A DNA stretch of 64,000 nt from a virus: IMG/VR virus record IMGVR_UViG_3300011977_000001. One strand, written 5' to 3'. Below are positions 1 through 16,930 of the stretch, piece after piece. Positions within the stretch are counted from its first letter, which is position 1. Each line of letters opens with the position of its first letter. The position numbers were made by a program, and so were the translations under genes. Under the pieces are notes generated by a model. The model was given only the letters and a program-made list of their open reading frames with translations. It was not told the DNA's origin and ran no database searches.

Positions 1-170
1 GGCTGTGCGGATGGCAATTCTAGCAACGCCCCTTCCATCACATCACTGTAAACAGCTTCGGCACTCCACGCCACATGACCCTCGCAATTCTGTTCTTCCG
101 CAAACGTAAGACGAAATGTGTTTTTCTTAACTGCATCAATCGCCGCCTGTCTGCTGATTAAGTCACTCAT
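1..170 (-). CDS. hypothetical protein, LISRQAAID...LPSAQP family (first 56 codons; 3' end beyond left edge)
   Basis: ATG at 170 overlaps stop of ORF 167..457 (ATGA). Frame stays open to position 1: MSDLISRQAAIDAVKKNTFRLTFAEEQNCEGHVAWSAEAVYSDVMEGALLELPSAQ. Shares N-terminal and LPSAQP motifs with ORF 2589..2876. Confidence 0.6.
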   Translation of the reverse strand, partial: MSDLISRQAAIDAVKKNTFRLTFAEEQNCEGHVAWSAEAVYSDVMEGALLELPSAQ

Positions 171-457
171 TCCTTATCCTCACTTTCTGCCTGTGCTAAC
201 CCTATATAATTCCATCCTCGTGGTTGCATCCCAATGATGCAGTATCCATCTTCAAGACCATATTGTTTGCAATTTCGTAAGATGTAGGTTATTTCACGGC
301 GTACATGATGCCCAGTAAATTTTTCGCCATCCCATTCTTTTAAGTCAAGAATGTCACCTACTTTGTAATCTCTATCATCTTTACGCAATTCAAAAGTTTT
401 CTTTTCACATGGAATTTTCCAATAATACTCTGAAAGAACCTTTAATTCATGAGTCAT
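167..457 (-). CDS. DUF3850 / ASCH-like (PUA-fold) domain protein
   Basis: 96-aa ORF; HELKVLSEYY..KKTFELRKDDRDYKVGDILDLKEW pattern typical of DUF3850/ASCH proteins; GAGGATAAGGA RBS before ATG. Confidence 0.7.
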   Translation of the reverse strand: MTHELKVLSEYYWKIPCEKKTFELRKDDRDYKVGDILDLKEWDGEKFTGHHVRREITYILRNCKQYGLEDGYCIIGMQPRGWNYIGLAQAESEDKE

Positions 458-466
458 TCCTTATCC

Positions 467-523
467 TCACTTTCTGCCTTGTAGCGCTTCAATCGCCGCC
501 TGTCTGCTGATTAAGTCGCTCAT
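467..523 (-). other. 18-codon truncated LISRQAAI leader ORF (remnant of the family's 5' end)
   Basis: ATG 523, MSDLISRQAAIEALQGRK, stop at 467; own RBS (AGAGAGGGGG). Sits between the C5-methylase stop and the DUF3850 start. Confidence 0.5.
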
Positions 524-1853
524 CCTGTTCACGCCCCCTCTCTTTTATCCTATCTTCTGGAAAATGTCGCTTTGTTACCGCTATCGGGAATTCTTCTATC
601 TCGCTTGCAAATATCGCTGTCCCCGGTCCGTTGCATCTTTCCCACGCAAGCGGAAAGCCGCCGATACCGTCAAACAGGCTCCCCAGCGTGGCGGGTCCGA
701 TGTACTGCGCAGAGATACGCCGCAGGAGCCAGAACCAGAATGGAAGGGCGATAGAGTTGCCCAGCGCCTTATAGCGTGGGCTGTCAGCGTCCTTGTGACG
801 CTTGCCCTTGCTGTCTACCCACTCGCCGATGTCCGTCCAGCCGTCCGGGTAGCCCTGTAAACGTTCGCATTCCAGCGGCGTCAAGCGGCGGACAACGGAT
901 GGAGTTCTCACGGGGTTCTGATAGTTCAAAGAGTAACCGCCGTTCTCCTTGCTCTGAAGCGTCCCGCTGACTTCCTGATGTTCATTAAGGTTCCTGCAAT
1001 CAACCGCTGAAATCATCACCGCCGGTTCATGTCCGTGACTTTGTGCCCTTAACGTCGCCGTGCTATCGTGTGATACGTCCATCACACTGCCGCCCTGATC
1101 GTTCAGAACCATCACCGCCTGTTGATCGTGCATCGTGTCCAGGGTGTTTGCCTGCTCCGCCATGCTGACCTGATTTAACTGACCATTTCCGATGCACAGT
1201 GCCGTATAATCCGTCACCCGGTTTTGATGATCGCCCGTCATAGTGGGGGCAGTCTGTCCGTCGCCGTTGCCTCTGGCGTCGTAGACGGCTGGGCGGTCAA
1301 TCGTGTTCAGCGTGTAACTGACATCCTTCCTCCAACCTTTACCGTTGCATCCGGCGGTATCGGCTCTGTCAATGCCGTTTCCTTGCAGACAGAACACGCT
1401 GTCTCTGCTTTGTCCTCCGTTCTCGTTTGCGTTGAGGCTGTGCCACACTCCGTCATCTGGGTACACTCTTGCGGATTGGCTGTCCCACAGGTTATAGGCT
1501 CCGCTTGCGCCCTCAGTGCCGTCTCCAACTGGCTCTATTACAAAGTTTCCGCCGCTGTAAGCTCCGGCATTCCCGTTCCACTTTGTACCGTATGTTGCTG
1601 TGATTGTGCTCGCAACGCCGCCTCCAGCTGCTCCGGCAGTTTCTTCCCTCGCCGTTCCGCCCGGTTCAAAATCCCCTGACAAGCCTTTGCGCTCAAAGAG
1701 TATTTCTGGGGCGGATTGTCCTCCAAAATCGCAGACAACCGAGATTCGACGGCGACGCTGGGGCACTCCCCAAAACTGCGCATCGTGTACTCGCCAAGCA
1801 ACAGACCATCCGCCCAACTCATCGTACAGGCATCCGGACTTCGACCATTTTTT
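489..1853 (-). CDS. C5 cytosine DNA methyltransferase, downstream reading frame (motifs VIII, TRD, IX, X, then I and II)
   Basis: Frame open from 1853 (listed ORF starts at TTG 1817). WRVHDAQFWGVPQRRRR (VIII), long variable region, RRLTPLECERLQGYPDGWT (IX), YKALGNSIALP (X), then LFDGIGGF (I) and ASEIEEFPIAV (II) at the C-terminus, with no stop or start between. Confidence 0.8.
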   Translation of the reverse strand, partial: KKWSKSGCLYDELGGWSVAWRVHDAQFWGVPQRRRRISVVCDFGGQSAPEILFERKGLSGDFEPGGTAREETAGAAGGGVASTITATYGTKWNGNAGAYSGGNFVIEPVGDGTEGASGAYNLWDSQSARVYPDDGVWHSLNANENGGQSRDSVFCLQGNGIDRADTAGCNGKGWRKDVSYTLNTIDRPAVYDARGNGDGQTAPTMTGDHQNRVTDYTALCIGNGQLNQVSMAEQANTLDTMHDQQAVMVLNDQGGSVMDVSHDSTATLRAQSHGHEPAVMISAVDCRNLNEHQEVSGTLQSKENGGYSLNYQNPVRTPSVVRRLTPLECERLQGYPDGWTDIGEWVDSKGKRHKDADSPRYKALGNSIALPFWFWLLRRISAQYIGPATLGSLFDGIGGFPLAWERCNGPGTAIFASEIEEFPIAVTKRHFPEDRIKERGREQDERLNQQTGGD

Positions 1854-2197
1854 TCAGGCAGAGGCACATCTGGGGCATCTGGGTCTGCGATCCTGACGAT
1901 TTCCGTGAGGACCGCCTGGAAGTCTTTTCCTCCGTTACTGGAGAAGGCCCCAGGAACATTTTCCCAGACCATATATCGAGGTCGAAGATACTCAACTGCC
2001 CTTCCATTTTGTCTGTCACGCTCTCTCATCTCCTTTACTATCCGTATCTGTTCCATGAACAGGCCAGACCGCTCACCTTTCAGCCCGGCGCGTAGGCCTG
2101 CGACCGACAAATCCTGACACGGTGATCCGCCTGTAATACAATCAACCGGCGGTAGGTCGTATCCGTGCAGTTTGGTGATATCGCCGTAGTGTTTCAT
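1538..2197 (-). CDS. C5 cytosine DNA methyltransferase, upstream reading frame (motifs IV and VI)
   Basis: MKHYGDITKL.., GGSPCQDLSVAG (PCQ catalytic loop), MVWENVPG (ENV). No FxGxG motif upstream. After the A7 tract it continues about 100 codons in its own frame to stop 1538, overlapping the downstream frame. Confidence 0.8.
   Translation of the reverse strand: MKHYGDITKLHGYDLPPVDCITGGSPCQDLSVAGLRAGLKGERSGLFMEQIRIVKEMRERDRQNGRAVEYLRPRYMVWENVPGAFSSNGGKDFQAVLTEIVRIADPDAPDVPLPEKNGRSPDACTMSWADGLLLGEYTMRSFGECPSVAVESRLSAILEDNPPQKYSLSAKACQGILNRAERRGKKLPEQLEAALRAQSQQHTVQSGTGMPELTAAETL
1847..1854 (-). other. A7 homopolymer / A_AAA_AAT heptamer at the junction of the two methylase frames
   Basis: Plus-strand T7 at 1848-1854. 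The -1 frame opens exactly here (its last stop TGA is 1854-1856) and immediately encodes KWSKSGCLYDELGGWSVAWRV.. leading into motif VIII. Confidence 0.6.
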
Positions 2198-2253
2198 GCC
2201 GCCATCCTCTCTAGCGCATCAATCGCCGCCTGTCTGCTGATTAAATCATTCAT
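2194..2253 (-). other. 19-codon truncated LISRQAAI leader ORF
   Basis: ATG 2253, MNDLISRQAAIDALERMAA, stop overlaps the methylase ATG (ATGA at 2194-2197). Confidence 0.5.
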
Positions 2254-2599
2254 CGGTTCTCCTTTCCCATTCATCTTGAATCGACCTAACAAATGCCTTT
2301 ATCCGTTCCTTGTCATTGTCGTTAATCGTGTATACTTCTCTGTCTCCAAACATCTCTTCCAAAACATCGTGTGCTTCTTTCTCGCCTATCTTTGCAAGGT
2401 TTTTTGCTTCGATTGCTCCGTGATAGTTGTTCTGTAAATCAATGATTTCTTTACATCCACGGCGAAGGATTCCGCTTAATGCCCTATATCCAAGTCCAAG
2501 TTCTTCAAAATAAGGCTTGTCTACTTCGCCACGCTCATCTGCAACATTGGCAATATCCAAACAAATCTGCACAAGTTTTGTTATATAATCAGTCCTCAT
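2246..2599 (-). CDS. hypothetical protein
   Basis: Start moved to MRTDYITKLV (ATG 2599) behind GAAAGGAGAA RBS; 117 aa, protein-like composition. Confidence 0.6.
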   Translation of the reverse strand: MRTDYITKLVQICLDIANVADERGEVDKPYFEELGLGYRALSGILRRGCKEIIDLQNNYHGAIEAKNLAKIGEKEAHDVLEEMFGDREVYTINDNDKERIKAFVRSIQDEWERRTDE

Positions 2600-2876
2600 C
2601 AGTTCTCCTTTCCGCCTTACTGCAAAAATCATTGCTTTTAGTGACCCATGCTAGTCTTGTGCCGTATACGCAATAATCGCCGACACCTCTATATTTGCAG
2701 TCCTTACACCATATGATTTCCGGCTGTGCGGATGGCAATGATTCAATCATCGTTTTTGCAAGTGTCTTATCCCACTCAACGCCCCATGCGCCTTTGTCAA
2801 GTTCATCAATCGCCGCCTGTCTGCTGCCATCCTTCTCCGTACTGATCAATGACTTTGGTGAACTCTTCCAGGTCAT
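2589..2876 (-). CDS. hypothetical Cys-containing protein, LISRQAAID...LPSAQP family (full length)
   Basis: ..SLISTEKDGSRQAAIDELDK...LPSAQPEIIWCKDCKY..C..; 5' end overlaps the metallopeptidase 3' end, so the true start is uncertain. Confidence 0.6.
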   Translation of the reverse strand: MTWKSSPKSLISTEKDGSRQAAIDELDKGAWGVEWDKTLAKTMIESLPSAQPEIIWCKDCKYRGVGDYCVYGTRLAWVTKSNDFCSKAERRTDED

Positions 2877-3219
2877 GAGGTACGATGAAATATTTCACAT
2901 TTCCATCATCCTTTTCCTCGACTCCTACATGAAGAAGCTCGTGATAAATCAGAATCTCCATCTGCTTGTCATTGAAACCGGTCACATTCTGGTCGTAAAC
3001 CGTAATAATGAAGTCAAACGGGATGAATCTCTTATCTCGGTCCTGGACCTTTCGGCAGTCTGCGAACACGGTCTTTCCACCGGAATGCTTTTTCTTGTTC
3101 GAAGACATATATCCGATACTCACCTCGGCGTATTTCATCCATGAAATGTCCTTATGCTCTTCGATCACTTTTGCAGCGATCTGTGCATATTCCTCAGAAA
3201 TTTCTGTCTGTTCTTTCAA
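2806..3219 (-). CDS. putative phage metallopeptidase (HExxH)
   Basis: 137 aa, IYHELLHVG zincin motif in a context resembling the small phage metallopeptidase family; AGGAGG RBS. Confidence 0.6.
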   Translation of the reverse strand: MKEQTEISEEYAQIAAKVIEEHKDISWMKYAEVSIGYMSSNKKKHSGGKTVFADCRKVQDRDKRFIPFDFIITVYDQNVTGFNDKQMEILIYHELLHVGVEEKDDGNVKYFIVPHDLEEFTKVIDQYGEGWQQTGGD

Positions 3220-3409
3220 TTCTTCCTCCTATTCTTGATTGATAAATCATTTATGTGCGTTTCTAAGTGCCGTTTCTACAAATATTTTAGCGTACTTGAT
3301 GCGTTATTGGTATTCGTAATAGTGCACAAATGTGCGTTTTTTTTCAGGATAGTTTGCTATATTTTTGAATGATATAGGGAACTGTTGATCTTATCATCCT
3401 CCTCAACCA

Positions 3410-3940
3410 TCATTCTTCCTTTTCCAGTGTAAGCATCATCCTTTCAGCAGCTTTCAACCTGATTCTTACGTTTCTCTTTGCCGGGATAGCAAGCAGTACA
3501 ATCACCATCCCAAGAATCGACACCAGGGCGAATCCTGGCACTGATACCATCGCTATAAACCCAAGAATAATGTCTAATAATCCGATAACAAGATTGCAGT
3601 TCACGTTCTTCTGCTGCTTTTTCAGGTCTGCTATATCGTCTTTCGTTAAAGTTCTCACATCCTCACTTGTCTTGAGCTCCGATGTGTCCACGGCTTTCCC
3701 GGATAATGACTCCATCATCCTCGATTTTGAACCTGAAGTTGCCGTTCCGATTAGGTCATCCATTGATACAGTTGTGGCGTGATACACTTTGTTTTTCAGG
3801 GCCTTTTCCGGATTCTTGATGCAACCAATTCCCTTCTTCCCGTAGGTTGGAACAATTCTTCGTCTGACCGCTCTCTTAGCCATCCCAGTTGTCCTGGATT
3901 TGACTCTACTCTTGAGTCTCACTGTCCTGACTGATCTCAT
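3410..3940 (-). CDS. membrane-anchored hypothetical protein
   Basis: Basic N-terminus, C-terminal hydrophobic stretch VIGLLDIILGFIAMVSVPGFALVSILGMVIVLLAI; AGGAGGAAG RBS before ATG 3940. Confidence 0.6.
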   Translation of the reverse strand: MRSVRTVRLKSRVKSRTTGMAKRAVRRRIVPTYGKKGIGCIKNPEKALKNKVYHATTVSMDDLIGTATSGSKSRMMESLSGKAVDTSELKTSEDVRTLTKDDIADLKKQQKNVNCNLVIGLLDIILGFIAMVSVPGFALVSILGMVIVLLAIPAKRNVRIRLKAAERMMLTLEKEE

Positions 3941-3957
3941 TGATCTTCCTCCTGATT

Positions 3958-4923
3958 TTATTCACCATCAGTTCCGTATCGATTTCTATACGCCTGGCCT
4001 GCCAGCTCATTCAGGCATTCTTTAATGAACGGGTCCAGCTGATCTATCCATCGTCTCGGAATCGAATTGTACCCGTACCATGCGCCAGCAATTCCTCCCG
4101 CAATCGCTCCTATCGTATCTGCGTCACCGCCTCTTTCCACTGCGTTTCGCAGTGTTCCCTCAAAGGTGTGCTTCTTGTAGAAAGCCTCCAGGGCGTTTTT
4201 TAGCGAGTCTACTACCCATCCGGTAGGTTCTGCCTTCAAGTCCAAATAAGAGGAAATACCCGGTTTGCACCAGCTTGTGTGCACTCTTGCAGAGATTAAA
4301 TCTTCCTGTATCTGATCTTTCTGAGGACGCTTCCCTAGCTGTGTACAATCGTGAATAAACTGCGTATAGACCATGACTGCCAAGTCGCTCTGTTCGTCCC
4401 AGTGCGTGATCCTACCTAGCTGAATCGCTGTATTTGATGCCTGGTTCCGCATTTTATAGAACAGTCCAGGATAGATTGACCGCATCAGTGCGCCGTTCCC
4501 ACAGGCTCTGTGCGTTTCTGCATAAGTCTTTGACAAATTCATCCACTGATCAGTCGTCAGCATTCTTCCCTGCTTTATCCGAATTTTTTCAGCGGCAGTC
4601 AGGACATTGCAAATCGTGATTCCGATTCCGAAACCATCATCGATCATCCAGTTGATAAACCGATCTCCTGCCAGCGGAACCGGGTCATCCGGATCCTCAG
4701 CGATCGCATAAGCCTCCTCGATCGTCATCATCGTATCGTCTGTGCATTTTCCTGCAGTACAGCGCAGCACTCCTCCTCCCTGCAAATTATTTGCAGGGCC
4801 GTACTCATCCATCGCCTCCTCCCTGGAAAGAAACTCTCTCGGGGCTCCAAGTGCATCTCCGATCGCAACTCCGTACAGTGCGCCTTTGATATGGTTGAAA
4901 ATCATGTCTTCTTCAACAGTCAT
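3958..4923 (-). CDS. ADP-ribosylglycohydrolase (ARH/DraG family)
   Basis: GALYGVAIGDALGAPREF near the N-terminus and GGDADTIGAIAGGIAGAWYG near the C-terminus, the two metal-binding signatures of the family. Confidence 0.8.
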   Translation of the reverse strand: MTVEEDMIFNHIKGALYGVAIGDALGAPREFLSREEAMDEYGPANNLQGGGVLRCTAGKCTDDTMMTIEEAYAIAEDPDDPVPLAGDRFINWMIDDGFGIGITICNVLTAAEKIRIKQGRMLTTDQWMNLSKTYAETHRACGNGALMRSIYPGLFYKMRNQASNTAIQLGRITHWDEQSDLAVMVYTQFIHDCTQLGKRPQKDQIQEDLISARVHTSWCKPGISSYLDLKAEPTGWVVDSLKNALEAFYKKHTFEGTLRNAVERGGDADTIGAIAGGIAGAWYGYNSIPRRWIDQLDPFIKECLNELAGQAYRNRYGTDGE

Positions 4924-4938
4924 CTGCCTCCTCCCCTC

Positions 4939-5481
4939 TCATCGCCATGCAAACGCTCTTCTTCTGAATCCGTAGCTCTTACTGGTCCAGAAGTTCACAA
5001 GCTCCTGTCCTTCCTTTTCTCCGGTACTCAGGCTCAAACCATGAAGCAGCAGCTTCGGGTCGAATCCAAAGCGTCTGTATCCTTCCAAGCAGGTGTTGTA
5101 GTATTCCCCGGTCGGGATTCCCATGCTGCGTTCTTCATGCATGATGTAAATAATGCCATCCACCTCCGGTCCCAGTCTTCCGGTCAGCAGGTTGCGTACT
5201 TTTACCGGAATCCTAGTTTTGTAGTAGAACCGAGGACAGCCCTCATACCGATCGAGATTTTTTTCATCCTCAGCGCTGATTCTCCAAACAGCTACCGGCA
5301 CCATGGAACCCGTATTTTTCTCAATCGTCAGATAGCTTCCGGTCTTCGAGCCTTTGAAAAGCAGCTCGTAACCATCGATTTCTGCAGTTCCTACATAGAT
5401 AGCGTTTGGACATCTGTAAAGCATCTGTCCAACGCTCAGGTTGCTTCCATATGCGAGATAGAAAGTATTTCTCTCTTCCAT
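4939..5481 (-). CDS. gamma-glutamylcyclotransferase (GGCT), AIG2/GGACT-like
   Basis: Start moved to MEERNTFYLAYGSNL (ATG 5481, AAGGAGGAAG RBS); YxxYGSN motif and size (180 aa) fit the GGCT fold. Confidence 0.7.
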   Translation of the reverse strand: MEERNTFYLAYGSNLSVGQMLYRCPNAIYVGTAEIDGYELLFKGSKTGSYLTIEKNTGSMVPVAVWRISAEDEKNLDRYEGCPRFYYKTRIPVKVRNLLTGRLGPEVDGIIYIMHEERSMGIPTGEYYNTCLEGYRRFGFDPKLLLHGLSLSTGEKEGQELVNFWTSKSYGFRRRAFAWR

Positions 5482-5491
5482 GACTTCCTCC

Positions 5492-5785
5492 TTACTGTCT
5501 GAGTGCACTCTCCGCTCTCTTCTTATGCTCGTTGTCGGCTTCTCGATACATTCTGAGCATTTTTCTTTCCTCAGAAGTAATCGTGTCCTCAATACCAAGA
5601 ATGTCCAGCATCCCTGTATCCAGGGCTTTTGCTGCCTTCGCCACGATTTCAATCGGAATCTCTTTGATTACGTCCATCTCGTACTTGTACATCAACTGCT
5701 TTGTGATCCCGATCTTATTAGCCAGTTCAGTCTGCGTCATACCATTTTCTGATCTGGTTTTCCTGATATTCTGACCGATGCTCAT
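5492..5785 (-). CDS. XRE-family helix-turn-helix regulator
   Basis: IRKTRSENGMTQTELANKIGITKQLMYKYE canonical HTH_XRE pattern. Confidence 0.8.
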   Translation of the reverse strand: MSIGQNIRKTRSENGMTQTELANKIGITKQLMYKYEMDVIKEIPIEIVAKAAKALDTGMLDILGIEDTITSEERKMLRMYREADNEHKKRAESALRQ

Positions 5786-5789
5786 TCCA

Positions 5790-5948
5790 TCACCATCCGT
5801 TTCTCTCTTCGATCGACTCTTCTCCTCGCATCATCCAATCTAACCGTTCTGCGTTATCGGGGTCTTCGTAAAGCCTTTCAAGTTCCTCAGGATCACCATC
5901 CTCTGCCTTTTTTATCGTCTCAATCATCCACTTGTCTCTGTAGCTCAT
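5790..5948 (-). CDS. small acidic hypothetical protein
   Basis: Start moved to MSYRDKW (ATG 5948) behind AAAGGAGGAA RBS; 52 aa. Confidence 0.5.
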   Translation of the reverse strand: MSYRDKWMIETIKKAEDGDPEELERLYEDPDNAERLDWMMRGEESIEERNGW

Positions 5949-6015
5949 AATGTCTATTCCTCCTTTTATTGTTCTCACAGAGCCTCTCTGATAGGCCCTG
6001 TGAGGTTTTTGTAAG

Positions 6016-7005
6016 TCAGGCTGCCCTATTCCCGCTGTAAGCAGCGTTCCCGCTCAGTCGGCGTGTCAGAACGTCTCTTGCCGTCTCGAACTCTTTCCCG
6101 ATAAATCCCAGACGCAGAAGCCAGCAGCGCATTGCGTATTTGTGGTTGCTATCCAGGTTCTCGTTCGGGGTCGTCCTAGTGACTTCCTTAGAATACTGAG
6201 ACATTGCCAGGCAGAGCTGAATGTAAGCCTTTACCATACCAGCGTGTATTCCGCCCTTCCGGTCCTGACTCGGGTTGTCGAACTGGAAGCACCGGAACTC
6301 GATCGTCCCGTGCCCATGCGGGTCGAATAAGCTGTGGAGATTGAGCATGTGGTATCTGGTTTCGTTGTAGTGGCGAATATTGCCATCAGGGTCCTCACCC
6401 TGCGATTTATACCAGCAGCGCCTAAACTCCTCGATTGTCTTCGGCTTCTGCTTATTGACTGCCTCAACCCAGCGGCTATCAGTTGTCTTGCAATACCTTC
6501 TTCTGTTCCAGGGAATGCTGATCGATTCGATCAGAATCGATTCATGAGCTTTCATCAGATTTGTCAGATTTCGAAGTGACTGGGGTGTGTGTCCTCCCTC
6601 TTTTCCCAGGTCCGCTCCAATGTGGACGTGGATTCCGCATGAATTTTCAGGATTGGACTTAGCTCCCTCTTTACGCAGCATTCTCAGCACTTCCTGAAGA
6701 GTCGGTATGTCGTCATAAGTCAGAACCGGCGTATTGAGCTCGCACTTCAGGTGCTGCGGATAATTGCTCACCTGCTGTCTGATCGAACAGTCGTAAGCGT
6801 ATTTCCACTTGCGTCCCTGCTGATCCAGACAGTAGTAAACATCCAGGTGCTGTTCCCATCCGATCGAGCTGTCATCGACATAAGTCCCAAAGAACTTTGC
6901 GGTCAGAACAGCTGCTCTCTTTCGGTTGATGCCAAACATCTCAACTTCAACCCCTATCGTCTGCTGCTTCATTCTCTCAATGAAACTGTTTCTCTCAATC
7001 CTCAT
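6016..7005 (-). CDS. amidoligase (glutamine synthetase-like fold, Amidoligase_2-type)
   Basis: Start moved to MRIERNSF (ATG 7005, GGGAGAA RBS); GVEVEMFG, CELNTPVL, CGIHVHIG and GTIEFRCF strands typical of GS/GCS2-like amidoligases. Confidence 0.7.
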   Translation of the reverse strand: MRIERNSFIERMKQQTIGVEVEMFGINRKRAAVLTAKFFGTYVDDSSIGWEQHLDVYYCLDQQGRKWKYAYDCSIRQQVSNYPQHLKCELNTPVLTYDDIPTLQEVLRMLRKEGAKSNPENSCGIHVHIGADLGKEGGHTPQSLRNLTNLMKAHESILIESISIPWNRRRYCKTTDSRWVEAVNKQKPKTIEEFRRCWYKSQGEDPDGNIRHYNETRYHMLNLHSLFDPHGHGTIEFRCFQFDNPSQDRKGGIHAGMVKAYIQLCLAMSQYSKEVTRTTPNENLDSNHKYAMRCWLLRLGFIGKEFETARDVLTRRLSGNAAYSGNRAA

Positions 7006-7199
7006 ATCAAATTCTCCCAAATGCTGGCAGCTCCCGGCTGCAAGATAATAGTAACGCACATATGTAATATTATCTATGTCACTAAAGCACAAATATTTAA
7101 CCGTTCGGTTAGATATAATTATCACTTATGTGCGCTACTTGTGTATAATTATGAGGATTTGAGTTGTTTATGAGCTCCGTTTGTGTATATTTTCAGAGC

Positions 7200-8582
7200 T
7201 TAATTCTGATCATCTCCCAGGATTTCAACGTCCTCCATATCACCCTTCTGAGGATCATCGACTGAGCCGTCTTTATACGCATAATCCTGCTCAGTTGGTA
7301 CGTAAACCTGCTCACAGTCCATCGTTTTACCGTATCTGATCACTCTAATGTCACCGGTACTCTGCTTATAAGCCAGATAACGGCGGACGATCGTAGATGC
7401 GAATTTCGGGTCGATCTCCATGAGATATGCGGACCGGTTTAGCTGCTCTGAAGCGATCATTGTCGTTCCGCTTCCGCCGAAGAGGTCCAGGACAATACCA
7501 TTCTCCTGAGATGAATTTCTGATAGGGAATCCGATCAGTGAAAGTGGCTTCATTGTCGGATGTAGCTTAGCTTTTCTCATGTGATCGAACTTCCAAATTG
7601 AAGATTTGTTTCTTCCACCATAGAAAGTGTGTTTTGCAGTTGGTTTGAAAGAATAGATAACCGGCTCATGCTGCGCCTGATAATCGTAGTTGCCCAGGAT
7701 AATGAAATCTTTTTCCCATATACACATCTGCGAATAGTGCAGCCCACTAGCATTGATCGCCCCAATGAAGCTATCAAGATACTTGTCGGAAGCAAAGCTG
7801 TACACAGCCCCACCATCCATCACATTGTCGTAAGCACTCTGAAATGCAGCCGTCAGAAATTCCAGAAAATGCTGCTTTGACATGTTGTCGTTTGAAATTC
7901 CACGAGCAACGGTCTGCCCACGCAGCACTTCGGTTGCTCCGTAATCGACATTGTACGGCGGGTCCGTGATCACCATGTTTGCCGTCTCTCCGTTCATTAG
8001 TTTCTTTACCTGCTCCGGGTCCGTTGAATCTCCGCACATCAGTCTGTGGCGGCCGAGTAGCCAGATGTCACCAGGCTCAACAAAAGGCTCAGGTTCTTCA
8101 AAGTTCCCGTCTCCAGAAGATTCACCATCAAATCCTCCTTCTTCGTCATCCAGGTCATCTTCCAGACTGTCAAGAAGTTCCTGGAACTCCTCTTCAGAAA
8201 ATCCAGTAAGTGTGTAATCATATCCGTCCTCTTCCAGCTCTTTCAAAACGTCTGCAAGCTGCTGCTCATCCCATTCGCCACTGATCTTATTTAGGCCGAT
8301 GTTTGCCATTTTCTCGCTAACTTTATCCATGTCAACGACATTGACCAGAACTTCTGGTATCCCCATATCTTTCAAGACATAGTATCTCTGATGTCCTGAA
8401 ATGATCGTCATGTCTTTATTGACAATGATAGGGTCAATGTATCCAAATTCTTCAATACTCCGTTTTATGTCCTGATATTCTTTATCCTCAGGTGTCAGAC
8501 GTTTTCTCGGGTTATAGTCTGCAGGAACCAGCTTATCGATACTGATCTTCTGCATGTTGATGTTCTGCTTAAACGGTTTCAT
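7200..8582 (-). CDS. ParB-like nuclease domain fused to N6A/N4C DNA methyltransferase
   Basis: Start moved to ATG 8582 (GAGGAGG RBS). N-terminal DKLVPADYNPRK...ISGHQRY (ParB/Srx-like), then VITDPPYNVDYG (motif IV) followed by LDLFGGSGTT (motif I), i.e. beta-class order. Confidence 0.85.
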   Translation of the reverse strand: MKPFKQNINMQKISIDKLVPADYNPRKRLTPEDKEYQDIKRSIEEFGYIDPIIVNKDMTIISGHQRYYVLKDMGIPEVLVNVVDMDKVSEKMANIGLNKISGEWDEQQLADVLKELEEDGYDYTLTGFSEEEFQELLDSLEDDLDDEEGGFDGESSGDGNFEEPEPFVEPGDIWLLGRHRLMCGDSTDPEQVKKLMNGETANMVITDPPYNVDYGATEVLRGQTVARGISNDNMSKQHFLEFLTAAFQSAYDNVMDGGAVYSFASDKYLDSFIGAINASGLHYSQMCIWEKDFIILGNYDYQAQHEPVIYSFKPTAKHTFYGGRNKSSIWKFDHMRKAKLHPTMKPLSLIGFPIRNSSQENGIVLDLFGGSGTTMIASEQLNRSAYLMEIDPKFASTIVRRYLAYKQSTGDIRVIRYGKTMDCEQVYVPTEQDYAYKDGSVDDPQKGDMEDVEILGDDQN

Positions 8583-8598
8583 AAATCCTCCTCGTATC

Positions 8599-8626
8599 AA
8601 AAAAGGAGCGGTATTTCTACCGCTCC
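8599..8626 (-). terminator. rho-independent terminator
   Basis: 9-bp stem GGAGCGGTA/TACCGCTCC with 4-nt loop, followed on the minus strand by TTTTTT. Confidence 0.7.
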
Positions 8627-8692
8627 CAAAACTAGGAAGAATTGTGCGCAGTCGAGTGCTCACATTTGCATCTTAGCTTAGTGGAAACGACT

Positions 8693-9460
8693 TCACAATA
8701 CCTCCGGTTTCAATTTCACCATGCGATCGCAGTTTTCCCAGACCACCCGGCTTTTGCTTTTCCTCTTGGCTTCTTTCATATATCCGATGCACGCCGGCCA
8801 GAACTCTCTGGTATCATCTGCTTCTATCCACTGTGACCTCGGAATTTTCATCCACACTGATCTGCCGGTTTCTTCTTCCACACCATGAATCGGTATCAGC
8901 TTGCTTAGATAAAATTCATAAGTGCAGGTTTTGTGGCAGCTGTACCGGTGATGAATGCAATTTTTGTTAAAGTCGCAGTTTTTCAAAATGTATTCGTAAT
9001 CAGGAAATTTCATCTTGTTCGATACGTAGTATCTGCAGGCTTCCATTTCCGAACCGAAATGCGCAATATTCCCGACTACCAGTTTTCTTCTGCTGCAAAC
9101 GAGAAGCGTTTCACCATCCTTCTGGTATTTCTTACAGTTCTGGCAAGTGCGACACCTCAGGATTAAGCCTCCCAGTTCTTCGAACTCGCATCCCTCGCAT
9201 AAGCCATCGTAGTAGTAATTGTGTATATAGGTCTTGCAGCTGGCTAATCCCTCTCTGGTAAATGGAAAAACTTCTTTATGTTTGAACGGAAATTGCTGAT
9301 AGAACACCTCAGCATTGAAAGTATAGGACCGTTGCGGTGTCTGGCAGTAATAGGTTGATTCGCCATCGTGTTCCTGCACTTCTTCAATCTTCGTTCCGAA
9401 TGGTTCCCAGGAATATTCAAGTGCGTTTGGAACATAGACGTAATCCCCAGTTTTATACAT
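8693..9460 (-). CDS. Cys-rich hypothetical protein
   Basis: 255-aa ORF with many CxxC pairs (CEGCEF, CRTCQNC, CHKTC); no family recognised. Confidence 0.6.
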   Translation of the reverse strand: MYKTGDYVYVPNALEYSWEPFGTKIEEVQEHDGESTYYCQTPQRSYTFNAEVFYQQFPFKHKEVFPFTREGLASCKTYIHNYYYDGLCEGCEFEELGGLILRCRTCQNCKKYQKDGETLLVCSRRKLVVGNIAHFGSEMEACRYYVSNKMKFPDYEYILKNCDFNKNCIHHRYSCHKTCTYEFYLSKLIPIHGVEEETGRSVWMKIPRSQWIEADDTREFWPACIGYMKEAKRKSKSRVVWENCDRMVKLKPEVL

Positions 9461-9472
9461 ATTCCCTCCCAG

Positions 9473-9658
9473 TCACAACATTTTTCTCAGAATAATTGTT
9501 TCGGCAATCCCAACCATGACTCCAATCAGTGCGGCGCACTTGATCACTGTTAAAGCAGGAAAGAAGAAATAGAACGGGAATGACATTACGCAAAACACCA
9601 TCATATTCATCACAATCAGTACAGCTGCCTCAGCTAGTAATAATTTCCACCCCTTCAT
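9473..9658 (-). CDS. small membrane protein
   Basis: 61 aa, two hydrophobic segments. Confidence 0.5.
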   Translation of the reverse strand: MKGWKLLLAEAAVLIVMNMMVFCVMSFPFYFFFPALTVIKCAALIGVMVGIAETIILRKML

Positions 9659-9673
9659 TCCTGCCTCCTACAG

Positions 9674-10141
9674 TCAAATCTTTCCAGTTCTCTGATAATC
9701 CGCTACCAGTGTATTCATGTCCGCTTCAGTGAAGTTATATCCTCGGTTGATTGCTCTGGTATATTCCTTTGGAGCGATGCCGAACGGCATTTCCAGTTTT
9801 TTATCGAATACCCAAAGGTGATAAACATCGCTTACATCTACCAGGTTTTTCTGCTTCGGATAAACTTCGATTGCAAATCGGTTCTCTCCGAAGAGCTCAT
9901 TCTTTATCTGCATTTTCTTAGCCCAGGAAATTTCTCCTGAACCATCAGATGTCCGTTGCCCGTGAGTGATCGTGACGTGTTCCACGTTGCCGAACTTTGT
10001 CCGAATCAGGCGAGAGCAAACGCATATGTTTTCATCGTTGTCAATCCAGCATCGGTCCATTTCGGAATGCCAGCTGTCTTGCTGGTACATTCCGAAACGA
10101 TCTTTCAGAGCCTTCGGTGGAATAGCTTTGACCCAGTTCAT
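9674..10141 (-). CDS. hypothetical conserved phage protein
   Basis: 155-aa ORF, VEHVTITHG...IKNELFGENRFAIEVYP..YHLW pattern seen in phage early proteins; family not named. Confidence 0.6.
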   Translation of the reverse strand: MNWVKAIPPKALKDRFGMYQQDSWHSEMDRCWIDNDENICVCSRLIRTKFGNVEHVTITHGQRTSDGSGEISWAKKMQIKNELFGENRFAIEVYPKQKNLVDVSDVYHLWVFDKKLEMPFGIAPKEYTRAINRGYNFTEADMNTLVADYQRTGKI

Positions 10142-10150
10142 ACCATCACC

Positions 10151-11110
10151 TCATTCAAAGCGGATCCCGCTATCGATCATGTACTGTCTCAGGTCGATCA
10201 GCTGCTGCTTTGTACCGATTGCAATAAACTTTGCTCGATAGAGCTCTACAGCTGGTTCCTCCTGCTTTGGTTCCGGAGCTGTGGCTGTTACCTCTTCTGC
10301 TGCCGGCAGTGCGTTGACTGGTGCTTCTGGCTGCTGAAGGAACGGGTCAACTGCCTGTTCATACTGCTGTGCGCTATTATTTGCCGTTTCTACCGTTTCT
10401 GTGCGTTCGCTGGCTGAATTTACTGTCTGAGACGTTTTAGCGGCTTCCTGCTGCTCCTGGGCTCGTCTGCTGGCCTCCTCCGCCGCTTTTCTTCTCTCGG
10501 AGAGTTCATGCATCTCACGAATAACTTCGGCTACATCAAATGTGGCCAGGTATCTTTCCTGTGCATATACCATGTCCTGTTCTTCAACGCTCATTTTCAG
10601 GGTGTCAAGATCAGCCAGGATTTTCTGTTTTGCCTCATCCAGCTCACTGATCGCTTTTTTCTCGGTCTTAGAGGCCAGAAGCATTTTGTCATTCAAGAGT
10701 CTGTCAAAGCCGACCATGGAGCGGAAATCCTGGTCGTAAGTCTCATAGTGCTTTTCCAGGGCTTCTCTGCGTTCCTTCTTCTTCTGAGCTTCAGCCCCTT
10801 TTATTGTGGCATCGATCTCAGTGATTGCCTCATCGATCGGGGCCAGGATTTCTTTCACGCCATCCTCGAACTCGTTATACGGAGCCAAGATTGCGTTCTT
10901 GACCTCAATTCTGCGAGCGGAGATGGATTTCTTCATCTTGTTCAGGTACGCTCGGTCCGCCTTTGCGTCTTTTATCGTGTCCTCAGTGTAGACAACATTC
11001 TTGTAGTCTTTCACCTTCTGCTCGATAAAGCTCTTGATTTCGTCTTTATTCCAGACGATGTTTGTGATGAACGATTTCGGCTGCTGAATCACTAAGCTAA
11101 GTTCTTCCAT
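10151..11110 (-). CDS. DUF1351-like phage protein
   Basis: Lys/Glu-rich coiled-coil N-terminal two thirds (DAKADRAYLNKMKKSISARRIEVKNAIL..) and position near RecT, as in Firmicutes phages. Confidence 0.55.
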   Translation of the reverse strand: MEELSLVIQQPKSFITNIVWNKDEIKSFIEQKVKDYKNVVYTEDTIKDAKADRAYLNKMKKSISARRIEVKNAILAPYNEFEDGVKEILAPIDEAITEIDATIKGAEAQKKKERREALEKHYETYDQDFRSMVGFDRLLNDKMLLASKTEKKAISELDEAKQKILADLDTLKMSVEEQDMVYAQERYLATFDVAEVIREMHELSERRKAAEEASRRAQEQQEAAKTSQTVNSASERTETVETANNSAQQYEQAVDPFLQQPEAPVNALPAAEEVTATAPEPKQEEPAVELYRAKFIAIGTKQQLIDLRQYMIDSGIRFE

Positions 11111-11136
11111 TTTTCTTCCTCCTAGTTTTGAATCTT

Positions 11137-11289
11137 TTATGCTCTCGGCATCGTATTCAGGCGATAAATCACCATCATTATCAGCGTTGAGCTATATGCG
11201 ATTGACAGTCCGATTTCTCCTAACGAGTCTGATTCTCCCAACATCGCTATGAAAAGTAGAACCGTCATAATCACCAGTGCTACGAACAT
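11137..11289 (-). CDS. small membrane peptide (50 aa)
   Basis: Not in ORF track (<60 aa). ATG 11289 right after RusA stop with GAGGAG RBS: MFVALVIMTVLLFIAMLG.. Confidence 0.4.
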   Translation of the reverse strand: MFVALVIMTVLLFIAMLGESDSLGEIGLSIAYSSTLIMMVIYRLNTMPRA

Positions 11290-11290
11290 T

Positions 11291-11722
11291 TCACTCCTCT
11301 CGGACTCTCTCGATCTCTTTCAGTGTCACCATCGTTTTAGGTATCTCTCCGTATTCTTTCGTGATATGAATCTCAGCCACCTGGGAATCGTCATCATAAG
11401 CGACTTTATTCAGTGCATCGCAGATTGATTTGATCAGATTATCCAGGTCTGGACGTTTTGTTACGGGATACCGGCCTGTAAGCCATTTGGTTCGGTTCTT
11501 CTTTGTTGCCGACTTCGGTATCTGGAAGAATACTCGTATCTCCATCGCCAGCGGTCCGCTCAACACAACGTCCGGATAGCTCTCTGTGTACATGAGCTTA
11601 ACCAGGTTCTCGAAATTTGTTGTCCTCTTCGGAGTGTACGTTCTGGAAAACCCGTGAACATTGACTACTCTCGGCCTGGCTTTTGGAACTGCCTCACCAG
11701 GGATTTCAAACTTCACCATCAT
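11291..11722 (-). CDS. rusA: RusA-family Holliday junction resolvase
   Basis: MVKFEIPGEAVPKARPRV..., DLDNLIKSICDALN motif. Confidence 0.85.
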   Translation of the reverse strand: MMVKFEIPGEAVPKARPRVVNVHGFSRTYTPKRTTNFENLVKLMYTESYPDVVLSGPLAMEIRVFFQIPKSATKKNRTKWLTGRYPVTKRPDLDNLIKSICDALNKVAYDDDSQVAEIHITKEYGEIPKTMVTLKEIERVREE

Positions 11723-12032
11723 TGTCGTTTTCCTCGTCCCAGATATAGTTCTTCCCGAATATTTTCATGAACTCTTCTCTGGAATGCGTTTCCTCGAACT
11801 TATTTTGAGCAGCCCGCTTTACTTTCAAGTCTGATTCACGATTTTTGTGAACCGCATTCGGTCCATTTCGGTGACAGGTCTCCCCGCAAAGCCAAACCAT
11901 CAATCCGTATTTGCTGGACCATTTGCGATTCGGTCCTCCGAATACGTGGTGAAGTTCCAGGTGATTCCATCCATGCAGCTGAGTGCTCCCGCAAAGGAAG
12001 CACTGCCGCTTATCTTGCAAAATGCTTTTCAA
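11706..12032 (-). CDS. Cys/His-rich zinc-binding hypothetical protein
   Basis: CFLCG...LELHHVFGG...LCGETCH pattern; family not assigned. Confidence 0.6.
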   Translation of the reverse strand: MKSILQDKRQCFLCGSTQLHGWNHLELHHVFGGPNRKWSSKYGLMVWLCGETCHRNGPNAVHKNRESDLKVKRAAQNKFEETHSREEFMKIFGKNYIWDEENDNDGEV

Positions 12033-12667
12033 GCCTTCTCCTTCTCAGGCATCTTTCCGAACTGCTTATACAGTCTCCTGGTGAAGTCGTTGCTCATATC
12101 AGGCGAGGCTAGCTGTTTTTCGGTTTTCTGTATCAGAAGCTCAACGTTTTTTTCAGCATCAGGCTTCTTCTCGATCTCGTTGCCGGCCGCCACCGGTGTG
12201 AGTCTTCTCAGCTCTCTCTCCCGTCTCAGCGTATTCCTGTAGTTCCTGGAAAAGTTGCTCTGAACAACGGATTCAACCGTCTCGATGTCCATCATCGCCC
12301 ATTCACGGAGATTATCGCTGCTTCCTACGGCTTTCTGGACGGTCTGCGGAAGCAGCTCAAACTCTTTGGCTGCTCCGTAGCTTCCGTTTGCGATCGCCTT
12401 ACGGACCATCGCCCACGCCTCCATCTCGTTTGAGTCGGTGTCGTCCTGGGTCGTATGAATGATATTGATGATCTGGCTCGGAATCGGTGCAAAACCGCTC
12501 GTATCAGACACCATGTATCGTCTCAGCGCCTCTCCAACATCTGCTGCTGAATAATCTTTCAGTAATCTCAACCAGACTTCCAACGTCAGCTTAGCGTCCT
12601 TTGGATGCCAGTTGACGTACACGTTGTCGATCACTGCCAGAACCTTTTGCATATCCTCCCGTGTCAC
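12029..12667 (-). CDS. G39P-like replicative helicase loader/inhibitor domain protein
   Basis: N-terminus KVLAVIDNVYVNWHPKD..LEVWLRLLKDYSAADVGEALRRYM..FAPIPSQII resembles SPP1 G39P. Confidence 0.6.
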   Translation of the reverse strand: MTREDMQKVLAVIDNVYVNWHPKDAKLTLEVWLRLLKDYSAADVGEALRRYMVSDTSGFAPIPSQIINIIHTTQDDTDSNEMEAWAMVRKAIANGSYGAAKEFELLPQTVQKAVGSSDNLREWAMMDIETVESVVQSNFSRNYRNTLRRERELRRLTPVAAGNEIEKKPDAEKNVELLIQKTEKQLASPDMSNDFTRRLYKQFGKMPEKEKA

Positions 12668-12688
12668 ACCATCATCCCCTTTCAGTGC

Positions 12689-13588
12689 TTATACCCGGCT
12701 CCAATCAATCGCACCGTTTCGTGCGTTGCCTCTACCTTCCTCGGACTTGAGCGCATAGATATTTGTCCAGCCATTGATAACCGATTCATCCAGGATCCTT
12801 GCAGCCGTCTCCGGGTCAAACCTCCCGAACGGGTCAGTGGCCAAGATGTTCAGCCGTTTCTGTACCATCTTCTGGGCTCGCTCTGTAAACGGTTTCTTCA
12901 TCCGTTTCCGCATCTCGACATATCCTGAGTACGCCTCATTCAATCTCGGGTCCTCGTAATACTGCTGCGGCATTTGTACGATTTCACCATCACATTTCTT
13001 TGGAGCCCTGCTGGCCGGTTTCTTCTTCTCCCTTTTCTCTTCCTCCTCCTTCTTCCCCTCAGACTCCCTATCTACCACTACCTGTTCTTTACCCTTATCT
13101 TTTTCTAAATCAGAAGCATATACAGTAACAGTATCAGTAACAGTTGTATCCATAGGGTAGGGATACGGTATCCATACCGTATCCTTACTGCTTCCAGAAT
13201 CCCGTATTTTAGCGATATTTAGAGCAAGAAACTCTCTGAAATGATTGCTTTTTACCTTAATGATTTCATTCTCACAAGCAGTAAGGAATTTCTCTGAAGA
13301 GGTCCAGTTGAACTTGCACCAGTTTGTGACCAAGATTTCTTTTGTATCAGAATCGTAGTCAATCACCTTGTGTACGTCTTTCATTCGGTTAAGGAGCTTA
13401 TTGATCGTGTCCTGAGTGTATCCCAGCTCTGATTCAGCTCTCTTGAAGCTAAAGTCGTAGCAGCCACAAAGATTTGTGTTTGGATTTGTAAGCAGATAAA
13501 GATAGAAATATTTGTCTTCCGGTGTAAAGTCATCGGCGACTTTTGAATCCGTCCAGAAGCTGAGCTGGATAGTGCGATAGATTGCCAT
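12689..13588 (-). CDS. replication initiator / replisome organizer with DnaD-like C-terminal domain
   Basis: FWTDSKVADDFTPEDKYFYLYLLTNPNTNLCGCY.. N-terminal wHTH-type pattern; Lys/Glu linker; C-terminal ..ILDESVINGWTNIY DnaD-like. Confidence 0.65.
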   Translation of the reverse strand: MAIYRTIQLSFWTDSKVADDFTPEDKYFYLYLLTNPNTNLCGCYDFSFKRAESELGYTQDTINKLLNRMKDVHKVIDYDSDTKEILVTNWCKFNWTSSEKFLTACENEIIKVKSNHFREFLALNIAKIRDSGSSKDTVWIPYPYPMDTTVTDTVTVYASDLEKDKGKEQVVVDRESEGKKEEEEKREKKKPASRAPKKCDGEIVQMPQQYYEDPRLNEAYSGYVEMRKRMKKPFTERAQKMVQKRLNILATDPFGRFDPETAARILDESVINGWTNIYALKSEEGRGNARNGAIDWSRV

Positions 13589-13715
13589 GTTCACTTATCC
13601 TCTCAATCCGAAATTTTAGTGCTTAGAGGCAGCTTTTGCGCTGCCCCTATTGTGCACTTATGTGAATCCATCATATCACACAACGTTCTTATGTGCGTGC
13701 TGATCTTAAAATAAA

Positions 13716-14528: not shown

Positions 14529-14544
14529 CGCTCGCCTCCCTCGA

Positions 14545-15513: not shown

Positions 15514-15649
15514 AATTCTTCCTCCTGTTTTGTGTAAAAATAGCGATGTTAATGCCATGATTTGTAGCCATAGCAGCTTTCAGTTCATCAATCGACTGAA
15601 TCCCGTAATCCCGCTTCAAGATCTTCCACATTTCTTCGACATTAGCCAT
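15434..15649 (-). CDS. small hypothetical protein (3' part overlaps recT start)
   Basis: ATG 3 nt after the XRE stop; first ~40 aa protein-like (MANVEEMWKILKRDYGIQSIDELKAAM..); tail is the alternate frame of the recT 5' repeat. Confidence 0.4.
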   Translation of the reverse strand: MANVEEMWKILKRDYGIQSIDELKAAMATNHGINIAIFTQNRRKNYGRSDATGTAGTAGSAGDRSVSCYSA

Positions 15650-15652
15650 CGC

Positions 15653-16144: not shown

Positions 16145-16173
16145 TCCGATCTCACCTAACCCTTGTTACAATC

Positions 16174-16383
16174 TTAATCATAAACATCCTTTCCCTCGTT
16201 CGGGATGTTCAGATAGTCAGAAATGAGTTTTTCCATTTCAGGCGACTTGACTCTCTGACACACTACCGCACTGAGGTACTGCGGTGAGCGGCCGATATTC
16301 TTTGCCAGCTGCCCCCGGCTCAAATTCTGCTTGATCATAGCGATCTGGACAGATTTACTCCATCGAGATAGTTTCTGCTTCAC
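16174..16383 (-). CDS. Cro-like small HTH regulator
   Basis: 69 aa, GTG start behind AAGGAGGTG; NLSRGQLAKNIGRSPQYLSAV HTH; divergent from the CI-like gene. Confidence 0.7.
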   Translation of the reverse strand: MKQKLSRWSKSVQIAMIKQNLSRGQLAKNIGRSPQYLSAVVCQRVKSPEMEKLISDYLNIPNEGKDVYD

Positions 16384-16424
16384 TCAATATTCACCTCCTT
16401 GTGAGCTTTTCTGTTCTGGGATTG

Positions 16425-16433
16425 TGCTATAAT
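16425..16433 (+). promoter_or_regulatory. extended -10 promoter (TGcTATAAT) for the CI-like gene/integrase operon
   Basis: TGCTATAAT at 16425-16433; no good -35. Confidence 0.45.
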
Positions 16434-16929: not shown

Positions 16930-16930
16930 A

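Follow-up and report, generated by a model that had tools for sequence, protein, structure and literature searches.

A phage C5 cytosine methyltransferase gene with permuted motif order and a probable overlapping gene in its +1 frame

The virus record IMGVR_UViG_3300011977_000001, a stretch of 64,000 nucleotides (nt) that we call the window and whose coordinates are used throughout, carries a C5 cytosine methyltransferase gene in which the conserved motifs do not run in the canonical linear order from I to X. The gene and all its parts are read on the minus strand, and the order is III-IV-VI-VIII-TRD-IX-X-I-II, TRD being the target recognition domain. With a probability of roughly 0.8, the locus belongs, as a phage or prophage copy, to a large clade of naturally permuted C5 methyltransferases that arose once and are carried by phages of Clostridia. 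A preliminary description of this DNA had proposed a clean circular permutation with its ends between motifs II and III; this core claim is right and was undersold, as a whole abundant family shares the II/III topology. The catalytic core of the family also appears to contain a second conserved coding sequence, in the +1 frame, and in the window copy the methyltransferase frame is broken at a run of seven A residues (A7).

The permuted gene and the position of the cut

The motifs lie where the preliminary description had placed them. The parts of the gene are listed below (ORF, open reading frame; aa, amino acids; SD, Shine-Dalgarno; AdoMet, S-adenosylmethionine).

489..2197, minus strand: permuted C5 cytosine methyltransferase gene, order III-IV-VI-VIII-TRD-IX-X-I-II, in two frames in this copy
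2197..1538, minus strand: ORF1, 219 aa, starting MKHYGDITKL, with motifs III, IV and VI
2195-2197, minus strand: ATG start codon of ORF1, with an SD-like GAGAGGA upstream
2174-2185, minus strand: motif III, GDIT
2114-2131, minus strand: motif IV, GGSPCQ (catalytic PCQ)
1949-1963, minus strand: motif VI, ENVPG
1848-1854, minus strand: A7 homopolymer, CCTGAAAAAAATGG, where the methyltransferase frame breaks; heptamer A_AAA_AAT
1817..489, minus strand: ORF2 frame, 442 aa, motif VIII through motif II
1746-1778, minus strand: motif VIII, QFWGVPQRRRR
about 903-1685, minus strand: variable region of ~260 residues with several TRD-like modules
834-890, minus strand: motif IX, RRLTPLECERLQGYPDGWT, also cited as RRLTPLECERLQG (RxxTxxE type), which aligns to HhaI
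741-773, minus strand: motif X, YKALGNSIALP (GNS)
690-713, minus strand: junction linker, SAQYIGPA
654-689, minus strand: motif I, TLGSLFDGIGGF (FxGxG AdoMet loop)
555-608, minus strand: motif II, ASEIEEFPIAVTKRHFPE, also cited as ASEIEEFPIAVTK, containing ASEIEEF with the acidic residue
489-491, minus strand: methyltransferase stop codon, inside the leader repeat copy 489-511

The locus had been read as one gene. All the motifs are indeed present, but they are distributed over two ORFs in different frames, split at the A7 run. Pfam PF00145 matches both ORFs, and the protein repaired by one added A matches it with E = 2e-35 and scores 114.7 bits against TIGR00675 (cut-off 100.65). Motif X is connected to motif I by a junction of 17 residues that contains neither a stop nor a start, FWFWLLRRISAQYIGPA. 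The C-terminal tail, DRIKERGREQDERLNQQTGGD, extends into the leader repeat, about 20 residues beyond the point where members of the family usually end.

The permutation is seen in two alignments to canonical enzymes, both of which give displaced blocks. When the family profile is aligned to M.HhaI in permuted order, profile positions 5-58 correspond to HhaI 59-112, 129-156 to HhaI 143-170 and 420-478 to HhaI 270-316 (motifs IX and X), while 492-534 correspond to HhaI 16-56, that is to motifs I-II. Similarly, the N-terminus of a canonical relative from Caproiciproducens (L163) maps to the window in two pieces by tblastn: residues 45-94 fall on 2197-2048 and residues 2-44 on 689-555, 1.5 kb further downstream. 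The window contains no further motif I-II, upstream of 2197 or elsewhere, and no other match to the L163 N-terminus with E < 5. The gene thus has its new N-terminus between motifs II and III, its old termini joined, unit length and no leftover duplicate, which are the features of the engineered permutants named Type B (see below).

Canonical-order relatives, which occur in relatives of the same genomes, made it possible to locate the cut exactly. They read M(T)MGSLFDGIGGFPLAA...ASEIE.FPI.VTK.RFPEM.HVGDITKL...GNSVAIPCVDFVLRGIAYFLRK followed by the stop, and also show ...RFPEMLHVGDITKL... with the same end, ...GNSVAIPCVDFVLRGIAYFLRK. Comparison with them places the cut between RFPE and M.H.GDITK, meaning that an internal methionine was turned into the start codon, and the old C-terminus is joined in frame to the old N-terminus as ...RRISAQYxxPA-TLGSLFDG...

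A family trait with one origin

All of the 120 best matches to the repaired protein, down to 48% identity, have the order III-IV-VI-VIII-...-IX-X-I-II. At least 582 viral stretches of IMG/VR and at least 568 stretches of bacterial genomes (one genome per species) match, the genomes being mostly those of Oscillospiraceae, Ruminococcaceae, Lachnospiraceae, Christensenellales and other Clostridia. The N and C modules lie in a single open frame in 75 of the 88 loci of a first, mostly viral set and in 55 of 80 genome loci; intact genes are found, for example, in L001 (1322..3094), L005 (3823..5451) and L007 (3823..5382). At the nucleotide level, a distant blastn search returned relatives of only about 70%, and megablast of window positions 1-20000 against phage records gave no match.

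Since the same order recurs in hundreds of loci, it is a family trait and not a local accident. In a neighbour-joining tree of the motif IV-VIII core, rooted at its midpoint, 52 permuted and 18 canonical sequences form two pure clades separated by a single Fitch change, so that one origin is enough. The idea that the permutation arose at this locus, which was part of the preliminary description, must therefore be abandoned.

A different concern was that the C-terminal motifs I-II are local debris, the stump of a second, truncated methyltransferase, and that no functional permuted protein exists. That the window copy is frame-broken and flanked by recombination-prone repeats would fit such an accident. 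Nevertheless, the X-linker-I-II junction and the II/III ends form one open frame in well over 100 diverged loci with identities down to ~35-50%, motifs I-II are conserved to the same degree as IX-X, and the window has no other motif I-II. The conserved junction contradicts this explanation, to which we give next to no credence.

Several peculiarities were noticed among the relatives. Four genome contigs with 53-67% identity in the best-matching segment (L117, L118, L138 and L142) come from bins of metagenome-assembled genomes that are labelled Kiritimatiellae, Fusobacterium, Muribaculaceae and Staphylococcaceae, outside Clostridia; these are probably mis-binned phage contigs, or else the host range is wider. 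In eight genome loci (L113, L115, L117, L121, L135, L150, L158 and L168) the N-terminal frame is 300-430 codons long, and the IX-X-I-II module is either in a further frame or displaced downstream by 0.5-1 kb, probably through extra frame changes or insertions inside the TRD region. Finally, in 14 of 173 related loci, but not in the window, an in-frame TAG and one extra base come directly after the codon of the catalytic Cys (GGSPC-TAG-A/C-CAR-GAY), so that the remaining part of the methylase is read in the +1 frame. The site is at position 1509 of L003, 3066 of L029, L031, L036, L042 and L057, 3066 of L035, 75 of L046, 3066 of L059, L073, L074 and L075, 3066 of L079 and 107 of L103. These loci have diverged from one another, yet 13 of them have the exact 18-mer GGTGGTTCACCTTGTTAG in common. 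The site may serve for recoding or frameshifting, or it may be an inactivation that has been conserved. Recoding of TAG as Gln in this TGT-TAG clade was ruled out, because the frame after the TAG is not the methylase frame.

A probable second coding sequence over motifs VI-VIII

The preliminary description had spoken of an overlapping frame at this locus. The overlap is real, but what had been missed is that it holds a second conserved coding sequence. An ORF of ~150 codons runs in the +1 frame from methylase codon 58 to about codon 200, across motifs VI-VIII. In the window its parts are:

1819..2019, minus strand: first part, MTDKMEGQLSIFDLDIWSGK...CLCLKK, truncated here by the A7 indel
2017-2019 (GTG) or 2006-2008 (ATG), minus strand: candidate start codons
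1538..1847, minus strand: second and most conserved part, ...LLLGEYTMRSFGECPSVAVESRLSAILEDNPPQKYSLSAKACQGILNRAERRGKKLPEQLEAAL..., over motif VIII and in frame with ORF1 here

The ORF is intact in L005 (4001..4456), L007 (4001..4426) and L001 (1620..2051). It is always the +1 frame that is open, for 131-217 codons in 150 of 168 loci compared; in most of the others, this frame continues into TRD-IX-X-I-II or is broken by a frame shift. Of 56 intact genes examined, 49 have it as their longest +1 ORF, at the same start. Given the methylase protein and its own codon usage, a sequence would have a +1 frame free of stops with a median probability of 0.03. The start codon, ATG or GTG, has a constant position: it is preceded by AAGGAG and comes immediately after a +1-frame TGA that is itself conserved.

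Selection on the second frame can be read from the synonymous positions of the first. The entropy at 4-fold degenerate third positions is 0.94 bits inside the overlap against 1.59 outside (p = 1e-9), and it comes close to zero at methylase codons 154-191. Among 29 diverged representatives, the identity of the +1 frame is 0.535, compared to 0.273 ± 0.003 after synonymous randomisation, and there is no +1 stop in 112 aligned codons. Control regions, in which methylase identity is higher, have +1-frame identities of only 0.33-0.36 and ~3.6-4 stops. Altogether, these comparisons show a gene that is to all appearances dual-coding, with a predicted +1-frame protein of ~150 aa under purifying selection.

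One could suppose instead that the +1 ORF is never translated: an RNA or DNA element within the methyltransferase gene would suppress synonymous change, and the open frame would be its by-product. A predicted product without any known domain, half of which is disordered, is what one might expect in that case. It would not account for the lack of stops in a region where the controls have 3.6-4, nor for the conserved start codon behind an SD-like AAGGAG. Moreover, in the loci designated Type-2, described below, TRD-IX-X-I-II is accessible through the +1 frame alone, and there is a precedent in M.EcoHK31I, a C5 methylase whose gene contains, in another frame, the coding sequence of an essential subunit (PMC2836561). 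We regard an untranslated ORF as quite improbable.

A search with the repaired window version of the overlapping protein retrieved 1,137 clusters at 90% identity; with a profile, an exhaustive search gave 4,523 clusters at 50% identity, many of them of 300-620 aa and made of the domain plus TRD-IX-X-I-II. Nothing significant was found in Pfam, PHROGs or NCBIfam, and no cluster has a Pfam domain; likewise, there was no significant match among Protein Data Bank (PDB) sequences by profile, or by Foldseek with the AlphaFold2 (AF2) model. AF2 predicts for the free 150-aa protein about 85 disordered N-terminal residues followed by three C-terminal helices with a predicted local distance difference test score (pLDDT) > 90. 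The overlapping ORF is also present in the canonical-order clade and is therefore older than the permutation.

Public gene calls often favour the overlapping ORF and truncate the methylase. At L005 4001-5451 and L007 4001-5382, for instance, an ORF of 141-151 aa and a fragment of 173-273 aa labelled 'DNA_methylase (faint)' are called where the intact ORF has 519-542 aa. This preference of gene callers for the +1 ORF means that the family is systematically mis-annotated.

Two wirings of the same modules

In about half of the overlapping-ORF proteins there is no stop after ...LP..L..AL..Q, and the frame runs on into the TRD modules. Complete run-on cases reach IX-X-I-II: P0247 (570 aa), P0383 (620 aa), P0361 (535 aa), P0298 (508 aa) and P0254 (404 aa). 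The cleanest two-ORF case is L088, where ORF-A (2896..3621) holds motifs III-VIII and ORF-B (3179..4537) the new domain followed by TRD-IX-X-I-II, with an overlap of 443 nt. This wiring implies that the essential C-terminal half can be translated via the +1 frame only. The Type-2 relatives would thus be two-subunit enzymes, with III-VIII on subunit A and the new domain plus TRD-IX-X-I-II on subunit B, an arrangement that seems to match the known two-polypeptide C5 enzymes M.AquI and M.EcoHK31I. Since the new domain heads the TRD-IX-X-I-II subunit, the embedded +1-frame domain most likely serves the methylase as an accessory subunit or module.

The break at the A7 run

The frame downstream of the A7 run is the upstream frame -1. 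Adding one A yields a single ORF of 569 aa reading ...PEKKWSKSGCLYDELGGWSVAWRV..., and the resulting A8 would read PEKKW, restoring the methyltransferase and the overlapping ORF together. Beyond the A7 run, ORF1 has the C-terminal half of the overlapping-gene product in place of motif VIII. As written, the window DNA would therefore specify a chimera, made of motifs III-VI and the C-terminal half of the overlapping protein, together with an unstarted frame running from VIII to II. The ORF1 protein is identical to P0001 in public data. A one-base change at the tract would shift translation from the methylase frame to the other coding frame and give rise to chimeras such as this one, P0364 and P0373.

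The window shares the A7 allele with a contig of the Joint Genome Institute (JGI), to which it is 99.9% identical over 1,900 nt, and with a Logan contig, to which it is 100% identical. A7 is present in L170 and L171. In the relatives, homopolymers, mostly G7-G11, occur 107-160 nt after ENV, which is the position of the A7 run. A tract of at least 7 is present in 47 of 128 loci and in 12 of the 16 loci where motifs VI and VIII are out of frame, and seven of the nine loci with tracts of at least 9 are out of frame. The cultured Faecalibacterium phage FP_Toutatis (L004, MG711466, 6463-7874) has a G9 tract at the same site; its two adjacent coding sequences annotated as 'DNA-cytosine methyltransferase' are one permuted gene split by G9. 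An A8 version was looked for among the relatives and not found, the nearest reading VGKW or PEKDRW, and the 87 nt after the A7 run contain no frameshift-stimulating RNA structure, the fold being less stable than those of shuffled sequences (z = +1.9).

Three explanations of the break have to be considered. According to the first, the window copy is a true pseudogene, in which the loss of one nt from an A8 run inactivated the methyltransferase and the overlapping gene alike, with no means of rescue. The identical A7 in three assemblies would be expected, as would the failure to find A8 among relatives and the lack of the stable downstream structure that usually accompanies a programmed -1 frameshift. 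On the other hand, neither half contains a stop apart from the break, their identity to intact relatives is 82-91%, and the frame breaks of the relatives cluster at homopolymers of this very site, resembling a reversible switch. Inactivation is a serious contender, at something short of even odds.

Alternatively, the tract may itself be the switch, acting through slipped-strand mispairing (phase variation) or through -1 slippage of RNA polymerase or of the ribosome on A_AAA_AAT, and on the G runs in the relatives. It would toggle between, or mix, the full-length methylase and the chimeric product of III-VI and the overlapping protein. The positions and counts of the tracts among the relatives argue for this, as does the fact that a -1 shift at the A run gives exactly PEKKW and that the shifted frame is itself coding. 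However, A7 is short for efficient slippage, the stimulatory structure is absent, and G9-G11 runs are also prone to assembly error. We hold a switch to be possible, and propose it tentatively. In the window, a full-length enzyme could be made only via a -1 slip or an A8 revertant.

Lastly, the break may be an error of sequencing or assembly, the real gene being the intact 569-aa ORF. It is suggestive that a single added A repairs both overlapping frames at once; yet the JGI and Logan assemblies have the identical A7, though they may come from the same or related samples. An error is the unlikely case here.

Leader repeats and neighbouring genes

The preliminary description had also pointed to copies of a LISRQAAID leader flanking the gene. 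The flanking repeats were confirmed: a 23-nt sequence occurs in four copies in the window, at 136-158, 489-511, 2219-2241 and 2806-2828 on the minus strand, where none is expected by chance. Both flanking 'genes' are in fact leader-only mini-ORFs of 18-19 aa:

2194..2253, minus strand: leader-only mini-ORF MNDLISRQAAIDALERMAA, ending in a stop that overlaps the methyltransferase ATG (ATGA); holds repeat copy 2219-2241
467..523, minus strand: leader-only mini-ORF MSDLISRQAAIEALQGRK, ending in a stop, directly after the methyltransferase; holds repeat copy 489-511

Successive small genes begin with the LISRQAAID that the repeat encodes, while the upstream genes (the metallopeptidase ORF 2806..3219 and the methylase) terminate inside the repeat in another frame, as ...QQTGGD followed by the stop. 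This suggests a cassette-boundary or translational-coupling module.

It had been proposed that these repeats gave rise to the permutation. LISRQAAID-like leaders stand by the methylase only in its closest relatives, namely the near-identical contigs L170 and L171 and the 82%-identical L172 and L173; none was found in the other relatives within the 2.5-4 kb fetched on each side of the gene, and a regular-expression match in L086 is unrelated. As the leaders are confined to this phage lineage, whereas the permuted clade corresponds to one change on the tree, the repeats were rejected as its cause. They may mark how this lineage acquired or shuffles the cassette.

The methylase cassette (489-2197) has a G+C content of 55.6%, against 46.6% for the 64-kb window, which is consistent with a horizontally acquired module. 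Its minus-strand neighbours encode a DUF3850 (ASCH-like) protein (167-457), a putative phage metallopeptidase (PF18894; 2806-3219) and a member of the ADP-ribosylglycohydrolase family (PF03747, matched on the L170 copy; 3958-4923). With these neighbours, the region resembles the usual accessory or early part of a phage genome.

Proposed origin, fold and function

A simple scheme could account for the permuted gene. A canonical gene (I-II-...RFPE-M-x-H-x-GDITK...-IX-X) would have been duplicated in tandem and the two copies fused in frame, creating X-linker-I-II. Trimming would then have left the internal methionine just before GDIT as the new start and '...VTKxRFxE' as the new end. In the folded protein, the C-terminal motifs I-II would be expected beside motif X, within a normal AdoMet-binding domain, and the embedded +1-frame domain would act as an accessory subunit or module.

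Modelled by AF2 from an alignment of 23 rows, the repaired 569-aa protein has pLDDT values near 80-90 for residues 1-170 and ~485-535. The I-II segment is modelled as strand-helix-strand (residues 490-530, pLDDT ~83-86) in what is a poor model overall. Foldseek retrieved M.HhaI, M.MpeI and M.HaeIII at E = 7e-8 to 1e-5 over ~155-175 columns, in an order-dependent alignment that covers the III-VIII part only. These models are compatible with a permuted fold.

The TRD region is mosaic and variable in length (the proteins range from 382 to 841 aa), and modules such as CLQGNGIDRADTAGCNGKGW..SYTLNTIDRPAV and LNDQGGS.M.VS.D...TLRAQ.HGH.P are found in varying combinations among relatives. A long mosaic region of this kind suggests a multispecific, restriction-evading orphan methylase. 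Judging from the motifs, the phage context and the TRD mosaic, the enzyme would be an orphan anti-restriction methylase, probably multispecific.

Several points weigh against the picture of a natural, functional permuted family to which the window gene belongs. The tree depends on midpoint rooting and on a region that is the dual-coded core. The window copy is out of frame and so may simply be dead, and sequencing error could account for the differences in homopolymer length between assemblies. For the overlapping protein, neither a domain nor a structural match could be recognised, and its N-terminus is predicted to be disordered, so that its role is a guess. The AF2 model has a mean pLDDT of 48, falling to ~25 in the TRD region, and the docking of motifs I-II into the Rossmann-like domain is something that we infer rather than see. 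Finally, the statement that the II/III topology is unrecorded in nature rests on a 2018 survey of REBASE and a search of the open-access literature.

Relation to known enzymes

Naturally permuted C5 enzymes have been described before: Slaska-Kiss et al. (2018) list M.BssHII, M.Alw26I, M2.Eco31I, M.Esp3I and M2.BsaI, as well as 22 others from REBASE (PMC5944983). These, the Type H enzymes, are thought to be products of duplication and trimming. Among the engineered permutants tested in the same study, those of Type B, whose chain begins between motifs II and III, had the highest activity, and the Type B topology was absent from nature (PMC5944983). Like the window family, Type H enzymes are circular permutations of the ten-motif C5 fold, but their break lies in the variable region (order IX-X-I-VIII) and leaves both domains intact, whereas the window family breaks the large domain between II and III. 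With Type B the likeness is closer, since the N-terminus is at II/III and the native termini are joined directly or by a short linker; Type B enzymes, however, are laboratory constructs of CG-specific enzymes, while the window family is natural, abundant and phage-borne. No report of a natural II/III permutant, or of this overlapping gene, was found in the open-access literature, and the window family appears to be the missing natural counterpart of Type B.

Other C5 enzymes share single features with the family. Plant DRM2 also has a rearranged motif order, VI-X then I-V, and DRM2 chains are matched by the family profile, but it is a eukaryotic, RNA-directed enzyme with another breakpoint and is not closely related. 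The Bacillus phages SPbeta, phi3T, rho11s and SPR encode multispecific orphan C5 enzymes with a long variable region of several TRD modules. They resemble the window family in being phage-borne and having a multi-TRD variable region; their motif order, however, is canonical, and multispecificity of the window family is only presumed. The beta polypeptide of M.EcoHK31I, of 61 aa, carries motif IX in the variable region, unlike the embedded ORF of the window family, which has ~150 codons over VI-VIII and no C5 motif; the window family keeps motif IX in the main frame, and no homology was detected between the two. In M.EcoHK31I this second polypeptide is needed for methylation and is encoded in another frame inside the methylase (alpha) gene (PMC2836561, PMC3404938). 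M.AquI consists of two polypeptides; the division falls in the variable region, so that one chain carries I-VIII and the other IX-X (PMC3404938). It resembles the Type-2 relatives (A = III-VIII; B = ...TRD-IX-X-I-II), but it is not permuted, it lacks a long dual-coded stretch, and its second subunit does not begin with an additional domain.

Significance

The best tolerated of the engineered topologies would thus have a natural counterpart, present in hundreds of genomes, so that ideas on why nature 'avoids' breaks in the large domain become testable on real enzymes. A long conserved overlapping gene within a very common phage gene would add a large unannotated protein family. Gene callers either miss this gene, or call it and truncate the methylase, and thousands of phage and prophage annotations are affected.

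The three features may belong together. We suggest, as a speculation that is on the whole doubtful, that a natural Type B methylase, an obligatory +1-frame accessory domain and a homopolymer switch form one hitherto undescribed arrangement common in phages of gut Clostridia. If so, ~450 nt of the catalytic core would be dual-coding, the domain (4,500+ clusters, no Pfam) would be either free-standing or at the head of a TRD-IX-X-I-II subunit, and the tract would re-wire the pairing of N-terminal and C-terminal halves, making the phage population heterogeneous for DNA methylation. A homopolymer in the dual-coded zone suggests a simple switch for the methylation state of a phage, and such a switch would be relevant to the ways in which gut phages deal with restriction, both the kind that methylation blocks and the kind that depends on it.

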